A model generated the notes under the pieces. That model was not told where the DNA came from and did not search any database. It worked only from the letters and a program-made list of their open reading frames with translations. 10,036 nt of DNA from a virus (lineage: Duplodnaviria; Heunggongvirae; Uroviricota; Caudoviricetes), in the IMG/VR virus record IMGVR_UViG_2609459830_000016. One strand, written 5' to 3'. Positions within the stretch are counted from its first letter, which is position 1, and the number at the start of each line of letters is the position of its first letter. Positions 1 to 7,018 of the stretch are shown piece by piece. Both the position numbers and the translations under genes were made by a program.

Positions 1-55
1 ACCCGCGAGGTCGCCGCCCCGTAACCTGTCGGATCGCCGGAAAGGACCCGCAAAA

Positions 56-70
56 TGATAATAATTATCA
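56..70. promoter_or_regulatory. Candidate Fur box: perfect 7-1-7 inverted repeat TGATAAT-A-ATTATCA
   Basis: Bases 56-70 read tgataataattatca, and the two 7-nt arms are exact reverse complements around a central A. This matches the 7-1-7 Fur operator model from memory. The regulated gene is not identified; the 64-aa ORF starts about 150 bp downstream and a leftward partial reading frame is also open. Confidence 0.45.
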
Positions 71-218
71 TCTACATGTCACAACGTGCATCTACGCCAT
101 CAAACCACGTCAAATAATCAATTATGACGCAGGTATCGTATTAATTGATCTGCGTCAACTTAACGTAAAAACAACTTCAGACAATACAAATCAGCGACAC
201 TGAATACGGGGCAACCTC

Positions 219-772: not shown

Positions 773-1066
773 ATGAAAAAAATGTTGTTTTCTGCCGCTC
801 TGGCAATGCTTATTACAGGATGTGCTCAACAGACGTTTACTGTTGGAAACAAACCGACAGCAGTAACACCAAAGGAAACCATCACCCATCACTTCTTCGT
901 TTCGGGAATTGGACAGGAGAAAACTGTTGATGCAGCCAAAATTTGTGGCGGCGCAGAAAATGTTGTTAAAACAGAAACCCAGCAAACATTCGTAAATGGA
1001 TTGCTCGGTTTTATTACTTTAGGCATTTATACTCCGCTGGAAGCGCGTGTGTATTGCTCACAATAA
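773..1066 (+). CDS. bor: Bor outer-membrane lipoprotein (lambda Bor family, serum-resistance lysogenic conversion factor)
   Basis: The ORF track gives 725-1066 from a TTG, but the likely start is the internal ATG at 773 with AGGA 8 nt upstream. The product begins MKKMLFSAALAMLITGC, a lipoprotein signal with lipobox, and is 97 aa. It closely matches lambda Bor as recalled, and it is convergent with Rz as in lambda. Confidence 0.9.
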   Translation: MKKMLFSAALAMLITGCAQQTFTVGNKPTAVTPKETITHHFFVSGIGQEKTVDAAKICGGAENVVKTETQQTFVNGLLGFITLGIYTPLEARVYCSQ

Positions 1067-2856: not shown

Positions 2857-3939
2857 ATGAAAAAATTAACAGTGGCAATTTCTGCTGTAGCTGCATCAGT
2901 ACTGATGGCGATGTCTGCTCAGGCAGCTGAAATTTATAATAAAGACAGTAACAAGCTGGATCTGTACGGGAAAGTTAATGCTAAGCACTACTTCTCCTCT
3001 AATGATGCAGATGATGGTGATACTACTTATGCCCGTCTTGGCTTCAAAGGTGAAACCCAAATCAACGATCAACTGACTGGTTTCGGTCAGTGGGAATATG
3101 AATTCAAAGGCAACCGCGCTGAATCTCAAGGTTCCTCCAAAGATAAAACCCGTCTTGCCTTCGCTGGCCTGAAATTCGGTGACTACGGCTCCATCGATTA
3201 TGGCCGTAACTACGGTGTAGCATACGATATTGGTGCATGGACCGACGTTCTGCCAGAATTCGGTGGCGATACCTGGACCCAAACAGATGTATTCATGACT
3301 GGTCGCACCACAGGTGTTGCAACTTATCGTAACAATGACTTCTTTGGTCTGGTTGATGGTCTGAACTTTGCTGCTCAGTATCAGGGTAAAAATGACCGTA
3401 CTGACGTAACTCAAGCTAATGGTGATGGTTTCGGTTTCTCCACTACTTATGAGTATGAAGGTTTCGGCGTAGGTGCAACCTATGCTAAATCTGACCGCAC
3501 TAATAATCAGGTTATCTACGGTAACAACAGCCTGAATGCATCTGGTCAAAATGCTGAAGTATGGGCAGCTGGTCTGAAATATGATGCGAACAACATCTAT
3601 CTGGCTACTACCTATTCTGAAACCCAAAACATGACTGTTTTTGGTAAAAACCATATTGCCAACAAAGCACAAAACTTCGAAGTAGTTGCACAATATCAGT
3701 TCGACTTCGGTCTGCGTCCGTCCGTTGCTTATCTGCAATCTAAAGGGAAAGACTTGGGTGCTTGGGGTGATCAGGACCTGGTTGAATATATTGATGTAGG
3801 TGCAACCTATTACTTCAACAAAAATATGTCCACTTTTGTTGACTACAAAATCAACCTGATTGATAAGAGCGATTTCACGAAAGCATCTGGCGTTGCTACC
3901 GATGATATCGTTGCTGTAGGTATGGTTTACCAGTTCTAA
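2857..3939 (+). CDS. nmpC: Phage-encoded general porin (OmpC/OmpF/PhoE family, NmpC/Lc-like)
   Basis: The 360-aa product has a signal peptide [27 protein letters not shown], aromatic/Gly-rich beta-barrel repeats, and a C-terminal VGMVYQF ending in Phe. An AAGGG RBS sits 6 nt upstream. It lies between Q and the lysis genes in opposite orientation, the known locus of nmpC/lc in DLP12/PA-2-type prophages, and appears intact. Confidence 0.9.
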
Positions 3940-4126: not shown

Positions 4127-4510
4127 TTAATTAGAGTTATTAACAACGATATCCATCTCTAACCGGATATCTAATGCCATTAACATCCCTTCAATTATGC
4201 CCTCAGCCTTCTGTAACCTTTTCCCGATATAACCATCAGAGCAGCAATGCTTACCTGCCAGTGACATGAATGTCATACCGACTACATAATAATCTACTAA
4301 TAAATCGTGCAAATCGCTGTTGTTCTTTTTCAGACGGGCCATGCACCCGCAAATGATCATCGCGTCATCGTCACAACATTGCGGGCGAGATTTTACTTTT
4401 GAAGTAATTAATCCCTTAAAACCGGCGGCAATGGACGACCAGGTCACATCTTCATGATTATTAGCCGCCCACGCTCCCCAACGCTCAAGAACCATCTGAA
4501 TATCACGCAT
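4127..4510 (-). CDS. Q: Late-gene antiterminator Q (phage 21/82/QuuD-like family)
   Basis: Start ATG at 4510 has GGAG 7 nt upstream; the track start at 4525 is a TTG. The 127-aa product carries a Cys-rich putative zinc-binding region ([18 protein letters not shown] ... KHCC) and matches the DLP12 Q-like antiterminator from memory. It sits in the Q position downstream of the nin region. Confidence 0.85.
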
Positions 4511-4595
4511 CAACTTACTCCACAAAAATCAGACCAGAACGCCAATTACAAGCAAAAATCAACGAAACAGTATTAGTTGATTGTTATCTCTGACT

Positions 4596-6221: not shown

Positions 6222-6623
6222 TTATTTTAACTCATAGATCAGACAGTCAACGATTTCTAAACCATTTACCATAGAATTAGAAACGCGAACTTTACCATCG
6301 TTGACTCTAGCAAATCCTTTTAACATTTTATAAACAAAAGCTGAATCCCCCTTAGCCTCAATTGCTTCTAATGGTATCGGCTTATACTTTTTTGATATGC
6401 TATTTCTATTTATCTCACTGATTTTTCTATATATTTCTGCCGGCCCACGTTCTGAGAAGTCACTGATAACTAAAATATATCTCCAAGATAGATCTGGGTA
6501 ATAAAACCACATTGCAGCATCAATAGTTAAATTCTGTAACTTGAGTTTTTTTAACAAAAATTGACCTGAGAATTCCATATCTTTTGTCAACTCTCTGCCG
6601 ATTACCAGTGTGCTTTTACCCAT
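6222..6623 (-). CDS. Hypothetical protein (133 aa), downstream partner of the HEPN-like gene; low-GC accessory gene of unknown family
   Basis: ATG at 6623 with GGAG 7 nt upstream, lying inside the 3' end of the upstream gene (22-nt overlap). The DNA is AT-rich. No recognisable catalytic motif was found, including no canonical GS...DxD nucleotidyltransferase signature. Confidence 0.6.
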   Translation of the reverse strand: MGKSTLVIGRELTKDMEFSGQFLLKKLKLQNLTIDAAMWFYYPDLSWRYILVISDFSERGPAEIYRKISEINRNSISKKYKPIPLEAIEAKGDSAFVYKMLKGFARVNDGKVRVSNSMVNGLEIVDCLIYELK

Positions 6624-7018
6624 TTCAAAACTCCAGAATTTTGGTCACCTACAGCATCAAACAATTGTTCGGCCATAGCTTTACTTATGTTATTGTCGTA
6701 TCTAAATTGCTCGCTCCAGTCTTTAACGACCGACCAGTTAATCTCCAACGAAACATCATTTTTTGCGTCAGCAATCAAAATTTGATGTAAGTTGGCAATT
6801 TTGAGAAGTTGCGACAAATCATGAGTATATGAATCATTTACGACTTTTTTGTTTGGAAACTCATGTTGTAAAAATGACTTGGCAATACAGGCCTTCAATG
6901 CACATTCAACTGCATACCCACAAAGATAATATGCACCATGAAAAAAGCCATGATCAAGCAAGCATTTGGCCTCATTAAGCCTAGTGTCAGATAATGCTTC
7001 AAGGTCGTTTTTATTCAT
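6602..7018 (-). CDS. HEPN-like domain protein (138 aa), low-GC accessory gene
   Basis: The sequence pattern (LLDHGFFHGAYYLCGYAVECALKACIAKSF ... NDSYTHDLSQLLKIANL) resembles the HEPN helical-bundle signature as recalled. The canonical Rx4-6H RNase motif is not obviously present. A perfect TATAAT (minus strand, 7052-7057) lies upstream as a possible own promoter. Confidence 0.65.
   Translation of the reverse strand: MNKNDLEALSDTRLNEAKCLLDHGFFHGAYYLCGYAVECALKACIAKSFLQHEFPNKKVVNDSYTHDLSQLLKIANLHQILIADAKNDVSLEINWSVVKDWSEQFRYDNNISKAMAEQLFDAVGDQNSGVLKWVKAHW

Follow-up and report, generated by a model that had tools for sequence, protein, structure and literature searches.

What does a perfect Fur-box palindrome do at the edge of a lambdoid prophage, and which gene, if any, does it control? 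The question arises from the window, i.e. the whole stretch of viral DNA analysed here (10,036 nucleotides; IMG/VR record IMGVR_UViG_2609459830_000016), close to whose first base such a palindrome is found. The initial annotation had interpreted it as an operator placing an accessory gene of the prophage under iron control, and had named two candidate transcripts: a rightward one, comprising an open reading frame (ORF) of 64 amino acids and possibly bor, or a leftward one from a promoter overlapping the box.

The palindrome and its place in the window

Bases 56–70 read TGATAATAATTATCA, a perfect 7-1-7 inverted repeat as originally described, and shuffled sequences place it far beyond chance. 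The repeat is a perfect match to TGATAATNATTATCA and the sole match in the 10-kb window with up to two mismatches allowed, a threshold at which 0.09 matches are expected by chance (200 shuffles). All 14 specified bases of the 7-1-7 core TGATAATnATTATCA agree at these positions. Bases 51–69, CAAAATGATAATAATTATC, can also be aligned with the classical 19-bp Fur consensus GATAATGATAATCATTATC, with 16 of the 19 positions in agreement, and none of the 200 shuffles gave any match to this consensus at up to three mismatches.

The window represents a lambdoid prophage read on the minus strand of lambda. Its first 20 bases correspond to the lambda cohesive-end site in reverse complement, and bases 1–49 form a lambda-type cos site that had been overlooked (Table 1). 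The cosQ subsite, identified from its annotation at the homologous position in phage 434, is invariant in all cos sites compared. The features follow each other in the order cosN, cosQ, palindrome, ylcI and bor/iss, and then Rz, R, S, a porin gene, Q and the genes of the nin region. The palindrome lies 6 nt beyond cosQ, within the last ~50 bp of the right end of the phage chromosome, and is thus located outside any accessory-gene cassette. The leftward frame open from an ATG at position 71, which had been pointed out as a possible leftward reading frame, simply crosses cos. The rightward ORF of 64 amino acids, in contrast, is a real gene of the YlcI/YnfO family (DUF3950); it is transcribed away from cos and preceded by a ribosome-binding site (GGGG, 208–211), as annotated in phage 434.

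Table 1. Features at the cos end of the window, with positions counted from its first base.
Feature	Position	Strand	Basis or remark
cosN cohesive-end 12-mer, reverse complement GGGCGGCGACCT	8–19	-	read directly; aligns with the lambda, 434 and DLP12 cos
cosQ, packaging-termination subsite, AGGACCC (reverse complement GGGTCCT)	43–49	-	annotated in phage 434 OL657226
19-bp Fur-box match	51–69	no strand	16/19; hexamers cAaAAT-GATAAT-A-ATTATC
Predicted -10 TATCAT of a cos-ward sigma-70-like promoter	55–60	-	prediction; inside the Fur box
Perfect 7-1-7 Fur core TGATAATAATTATCA	56–70	no strand	same sequence as the DLP12 'nohB' Fur site
Predicted -35 GTGACA of the cos-ward promoter	77–82	-	prediction; not conserved in other cos lineages
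ylcI/ynfO-family gene, 64 aa	219–413	+	Pfam DUF3950, E = 2e-20; RefSeq YlcI/YnfO family protein
bor/iss lipoprotein gene	773–1066	+	Pfam Lambda_Bor, E = 6e-31; RefSeq: iss

Several further genes of the window deserve mention. A full-length OmpC/NmpC-type porin gene (2857–3939; Porin_1, E = 3e-153) is located between the Q antiterminator gene (4127–4525, minus strand) and the holin gene, on the strand opposite to both, and its place matches that of nmpC in DLP12. In the nin region, the gene for a HEPN-domain protein (6602–7018, minus strand) overlaps by 22 bases with an ORF of 133 amino acids (6222–6623, minus strand) that has no Pfam match, and the two may constitute a two-gene toxin-antitoxin or defence module. 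An ORF of 115 amino acids (8679–9026) has a match in the integron cassette protein family VCH_CASS14 (E = 6e-20), an unusual kind of cargo for the early region of a lambdoid phage, and is adjoined by a Bro-N/P22_AR_C antirepressor-like gene (7318–8163, minus strand).

The nohA and nohB sites of E. coli K-12 and binding by Fur

The same palindrome is present in the DLP12 prophage of E. coli K-12, between ylcI and nohD, and the window is identical to K-12 DLP12 from cosN to about base 140, except for base 50 outside the box. The Qin prophage carries the lambda variant TGATAATGATTATCA between nohA and ynfO, which differs from the box of the window only in the unpaired centre base. The nohB (DLP12) and nohA (Qin) boxes and the one described here are the same element, although the gene content beside them differs: in the window, bor comes directly after ylcI, but in DLP12 ybcW and ybcV separate the two genes, and the distance from the box to bor is about 1.7 kb.

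Both K-12 copies are recorded as Fur sites. Using a Fur model based on information theory, Chen et al. 2007 (PMC2189734) searched the whole K-12 genome; their Table 4 gives 'nohB' 25.3 bits at coordinate 579824 (U00096.2), which ranks third among the predicted Fur clusters, and 'nohA' 22.3 bits at coordinate 1634624. With the version offset applied, the two coordinates coincide with the palindrome centres located in the present version of the K-12 record. The published information-theory value of 25.3 bits for the identical DLP12 sequence is also the Fur score that we adopt for the box of the window. As the source of the nohB site, the same paper refers to the Fur titration assay of Stojiljkovic et al. 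(1994), and the nohA site was obtained through in vivo selection by Vassinova and Kozyrev (2000). For nohA, which they had picked as a sigma-70 promoter predicted to be under Fur control, Chen et al. 2007 (PMC2189734) observed a shift of the oligonucleotide with 150 nM purified Fur; their oligonucleotide set contained the Qin nohA variant and not the exact DLP12/window variant, from which it differs in the centre base. In addition, nohB is named among Fur-regulated genes in review-type text.

Binding of iron-loaded Fur to this site has been shown by others on identical or near-identical sequence, and these published experiments support the proposed identity of the palindrome as a Fur operator. 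The palindrome is the long-known nohB/nohA Fur binding site. It is already known and represents no new iron switch; as a Fur site it offers nothing new, as the identical sequence has been among the listed Fur targets for decades. The nohA/nohB literature assigns the site to the noh gene, which encodes a Nu1-like homologue of the terminase small subunit, and its accessible part makes no mention that the site abuts cosQ. The open-access papers searched deal with the site solely as a promoter element of K-12 'nohA/nohB', and a literature search for a Fur box linked to cos or terminase returned nothing relevant.

Data on Fur occupancy in vivo point in both directions. Among the ChIP-exo peaks reported for nine strains by Gao et al. 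2023 (PMC10164565), the CFT073 peak P53 (1424699–1424711), present only under iron-replete conditions, is flanked by a terminase small-subunit gene and by leftward genes, and its coordinates in CFT073 overlap with a palindrome of the phage-21 type, GTGATAATTATTCTC, located 6 nt from cosQ. A Fur peak is thus listed on a homologous palindrome in CFT073, whereas the same study reports no peak on the box in MG1655, W3110 or BL21(DE3). None of the 137 Fur peaks of MG1655, from a sheet flagged against Seo et al., falls in the intervals 562–611 kb or 1609–1655 kb that span the DLP12 and Qin sites; W3110 has no peak in the DLP12 interval (562–595 kb), and BL21(DE3) has neither a peak nor a locus tag at the lambda DE3 box (768425–768439). 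The sheets for O157 Sakai, 042, W, KO11FL and Crooks contain no peak with a noh gene name, in a comparison by gene name (PMC10164565). Multi-mapped reads were considered as the cause of the absent K-12 peak and rejected: reads can distinguish the two copies, since the cos regions of DLP12 and Qin show 18 differences over 390 positions and several of these adjoin the box, so that the absent peak is no mapping artefact.

Two further observations concern these loci. A published MG1655 'FNR' ChIP-seq summit (1634625) falls exactly on the Qin cos box and was grouped by its authors with nine other operons described as known to be Fur-bound; it may reflect FNR, Fur or an easily pulled-down ChIP site. 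In the CFT073 prophage with peak P53, a gene for a 'TonB family protein' (NC_004431.1, 1423654–1423980) is found at a distance of ~700 bp from the box, i.e. iron-uptake-related cargo beside a Fur site.

Conservation of the box with cos

In a comparison of phages anchored on cosQ, this subsite is followed by the core GATAATnATTATC, intact or with one or two substitutions, in lambda, 434, DLP12, phi80, N15 and 21, and also in HK225, mEp237, a Stx1a phage, YDC107_1 and PhiR12_2. Past the box, the DNA of most of these phages is unrelated. Phages 4A7 and 2B8 contain cosN and cosQ without the box.

A scan of viral contigs with a pattern made up of cosN and cosQ only retrieved 117 usable loci, which form 22 flank clusters that include distant homologues of each other. 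The box, defined by up to three mismatches to the 14 specified bases, is found 4–8 nt after cosQ in 17 of the 22 flank clusters, with a background probability of 0.0024, and nothing is found there in the remaining 5. Over the 22 cluster representatives, the mean majority frequency is 0.90 for the box and 0.93 for the cosN–cosQ block, vs. 0.49 for the next 20 nt, and the consensus is a 10-1-10 palindrome, AAATGATAATnATTATCAttt. The A-rich bases preceding the core are also conserved across lineages. Substitutions in a single arm are not compensated in the other arm, a pattern more in keeping with a protein-binding site than with a hairpin.

The viral-contig loci include 72 with both the box and ylcI, 26 with the box only and 13 with neither, and ylcI is never found without the box (n = 0). 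The loci with the box but without ylcI comprise 19 unique flanks. Furthermore, the segment GTTTCTTCCACCATCGCACCGG (421–445), which lies just past the ylcI stop codon in the window, directly follows the box in Stx1a-type phages, YDC107_1 and PhiR12_2, so that ylcI together with its upstream region resembles an inserted module between the two. The box accompanies cos rather than ylcI or bor. What this analysis adds, modestly, is the conserved association of the box with cosQ among lambda-like phages, lambda itself being one of them. In lambda and most of its relatives, a site that ranks among the strongest Fur predictions for E. coli adjoins cosQ.

A lambda-type cos can also occur without the box outside of phages 4A7 and 2B8, as a satellite-like element of 13.4 kb has intact cosN and cosQ sites (2340–2460) and no box. 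This element encodes an integrase, a D5 primase, a single-stranded DNA-binding protein (SSB), capsid E-like and gpD-like proteins, AlpA and a Nu1 C-terminal-like protein, and its AlpA gene ends 22 nt after cosQ. If viewed as a cos subsite, the box shows the conserved position across lambda-like phages that such a subsite should have, but not the presence in every functional lambda-type cos, as 4A7, 2B8 and the satellite-like element are without it. Because two isolated phages and this element manage without the box, it is probably not needed for packaging. The cos literature defines cosQ as a 7-bp site and, where accessible, leaves the palindrome unmentioned, while the minimal cos insert of the Feiss laboratory (lambda 48446–182) happens to include the box.

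Transcription beside the box and its possible roles

The leftward promoter suggested by the initial annotation (TTGTGA, 18 nt, TATCAT; 84–55, minus strand) is present with 9 of 12 matches, and a better alternative with 10 of 12 matches combines the same TATCAT (60–55) with GTGACA (82–77) across a 16-nt spacer. In the 434/DLP12-type lineage, the box would cover the -10 hexamer and the spacer of this sigma-70-like promoter, which would drive transcription across cosQ and cosN in the direction of the terminase small-subunit gene. As the predicted -10 and spacer are inside the box, iron-loaded Fur would occlude the promoter, and this would be the state of an iron-sufficient lysogen. Of the two transcripts named in the initial annotation, the leftward one fits better, as its direction agrees with the published assignment of the site to noh, but Fur-dependent output is not consistently seen. 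On the plus strand, a search for a sigma-70-like promoter near the box found none, and control of ylcI or bor is thus not indicated. A sigma-70 promoter conserved across lineages, whether cos-ward or flank-ward, was also considered and discarded, as only weak scattered hits were obtained and none in lambda or phage 21.

Expression data from fur mutants are similarly divided. A positive log2 value stands for a rise in the fur mutant, as seen with fepA. In CFT073, the genes C_RS26755 (+2.95), C_RS07340 (+2.33), C_RS07370 (+2.13) and C_RS07355 (+1.34) flank the P53 box and are counted in the Fur regulon of this strain (PMC10164565). In the NCM3722 fur mutant, nohD2 (DLP12) and nohA (Qin) are 9- to 12-fold up (PMC10219339, Table S2). 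Higher expression in the fur mutant is therefore seen for noh or flanking genes in NCM3722 and CFT073, but not in MG1655, where nohD (log2 -0.14) and nohA (-0.29) do not change. Moreover, borD is down 2.3-fold in the MG1655 mutant, and ylcI and ynfO go from few reads to zero in that of W3110.

A third lambdoid prophage of NCM3722 (AA953_RS10095 to RS10165 and beyond), including its lysis genes, is ~11-fold up in the fur mutant; this value holds for most of the listed genes, with bor and Rz rising much less (PMC10219339). The rise suggests Fur-dependent or iron-stress-dependent induction of this prophage. As the whole prophage is up, its induction together with cross-mapping of reads could explain the noh signals, and none of the gene IDs of nohD2, nohA and the third prophage appear in the ChIP-seq peak table of that study (PMC10219339). 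Whole-prophage induction may confound the derepression in CFT073, too. The transcriptional output of the box in chromosomal prophages is weak or strain-dependent.

Taken together, we favour the interpretation, with a probability of roughly 0.6, that the palindrome is a high-affinity Fur operator within the cos-proximal block at which Fur occludes a cos-ward promoter, with weak or strain-dependent output and without ylcI or bor as targets. Lambda, phage 21 and most other box-bearing lineages show no predicted cos-ward promoter, and therefore occlusion cannot fully explain the conservation of the box. A neutral decoy site and a cos-linked role remain as alternatives.

If the box were such a decoy, it would bind Fur without any regulatory or packaging role and would be an AT-rich palindrome simply carried along with cos. 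The absence of ChIP-exo peaks in MG1655, W3110 and BL21(DE3), the unresponsive noh genes of MG1655, and the viability of phages 4A7 and 2B8, in which, as in the satellite-like element, cosN and cosQ occur but the box is missing, are all consistent with this explanation. Against it speak the presence of the box in 17 of 22 flank clusters, even if some of these are distantly related to one another, and its conservation (0.90), close to that of the cosN–cosQ block (0.93), when the DNA beyond it drops to 0.49 and the spacer varies between 4 and 8 nt; the CFT073 peak with its derepressed neighbours also argues against it, so that we regard a decoy as unlikely. Even less probable is the main proposal of the initial annotation, according to which the operator controls the rightward ylcI, possibly together with bor, and releases them upon iron starvation. 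The ylcI start lies 149 nt beyond the box, ylcI never occurs without the box in the viral-contig sample, and the two most derepressed CFT073 genes, C_RS07340 and C_RS26755 (2.3 and 2.9 log2), are on the side away from the terminase gene. Yet no plus-strand promoter accompanies the box, 19 unique flanks have it without ylcI, the DLP12 bor is far away from it, and W3110 ylcI and ynfO as well as MG1655 borD fall in fur mutants, the opposite of derepression. The broader claim that a prophage accessory gene is under iron control is not supported either, as the box belongs to the cos-proximal block with or without ylcI and bor.

The cos-linked alternative would make the box an accessory part of cos, at which bound Fur or terminase helps the packaging motor to recognize cosQ and cosN at termination, e.g. 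as a brake just upstream of cosQ. Its position 4–8 nt from cosQ, on the side where the motor arrives, its conservation in lambda, 434, 21, phi80, N15 and others whatever the flanking genes, and its inclusion in the minimal cos insert would all fit. Nevertheless, the lambda-type cos sites of 4A7, 2B8 and the satellite without a box, the variable spacing to cosQ and the silence of the accessible cos literature, in which cosQ is complete with 7 bp, make such a role very improbable. The palindrome could also be imagined as the operator of the adjacent YlcI, if this protein were a ribbon-helix-helix DNA binder. Its beta-strand/helix/helix-like pattern, which is an impression gained from the sequence, and the constant co-occurrence of ylcI with the box next to it might hint at this. 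We rejected this candidate and give it hardly any credence, since the box is conserved without ylcI in phi80, N15, 21, Stx1a phages and the 19 unique flanks mentioned above; a search for a solved structure of YlcI gave no match, and no solved structure or family annotation shows DNA binding by DUF3950.

Beyond the occlusion of a cos-ward promoter by Fur, it is conceivable, though on balance doubtful, that the box, which lambda itself has and which does not depend on cargo genes, is a selected part of the cos module, with Fur providing most lambda-like phages with a conserved input of iron status at the junction of the lysis and terminase genes that gates cos/terminase transcription in the lysogen or, less likely, aids the termination of packaging next to cosQ. 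If the box has a function, the iron status of the host would be linked to terminase expression or packaging in the best-studied phage family.

Two known systems offer a comparison. Like the Fur box, the IHF site I1 in lambda cosB is a site for a host protein within cos and is conserved among lambda-like phages. It differs in being located on the other side of cosN and in having a demonstrated role in the initiation of packaging, whereas some functional cos sites are without a Fur box. The operator of stx1 in Stx1 phages, credited to Calderwood and Mekalanos 1987, is likewise a phage-borne Fur site on a lambdoid prophage. In contrast to the box of the window, which is found at cos independently of the cargo, the stx1 operator is located at the promoter of a specific cargo gene with proven iron regulation.
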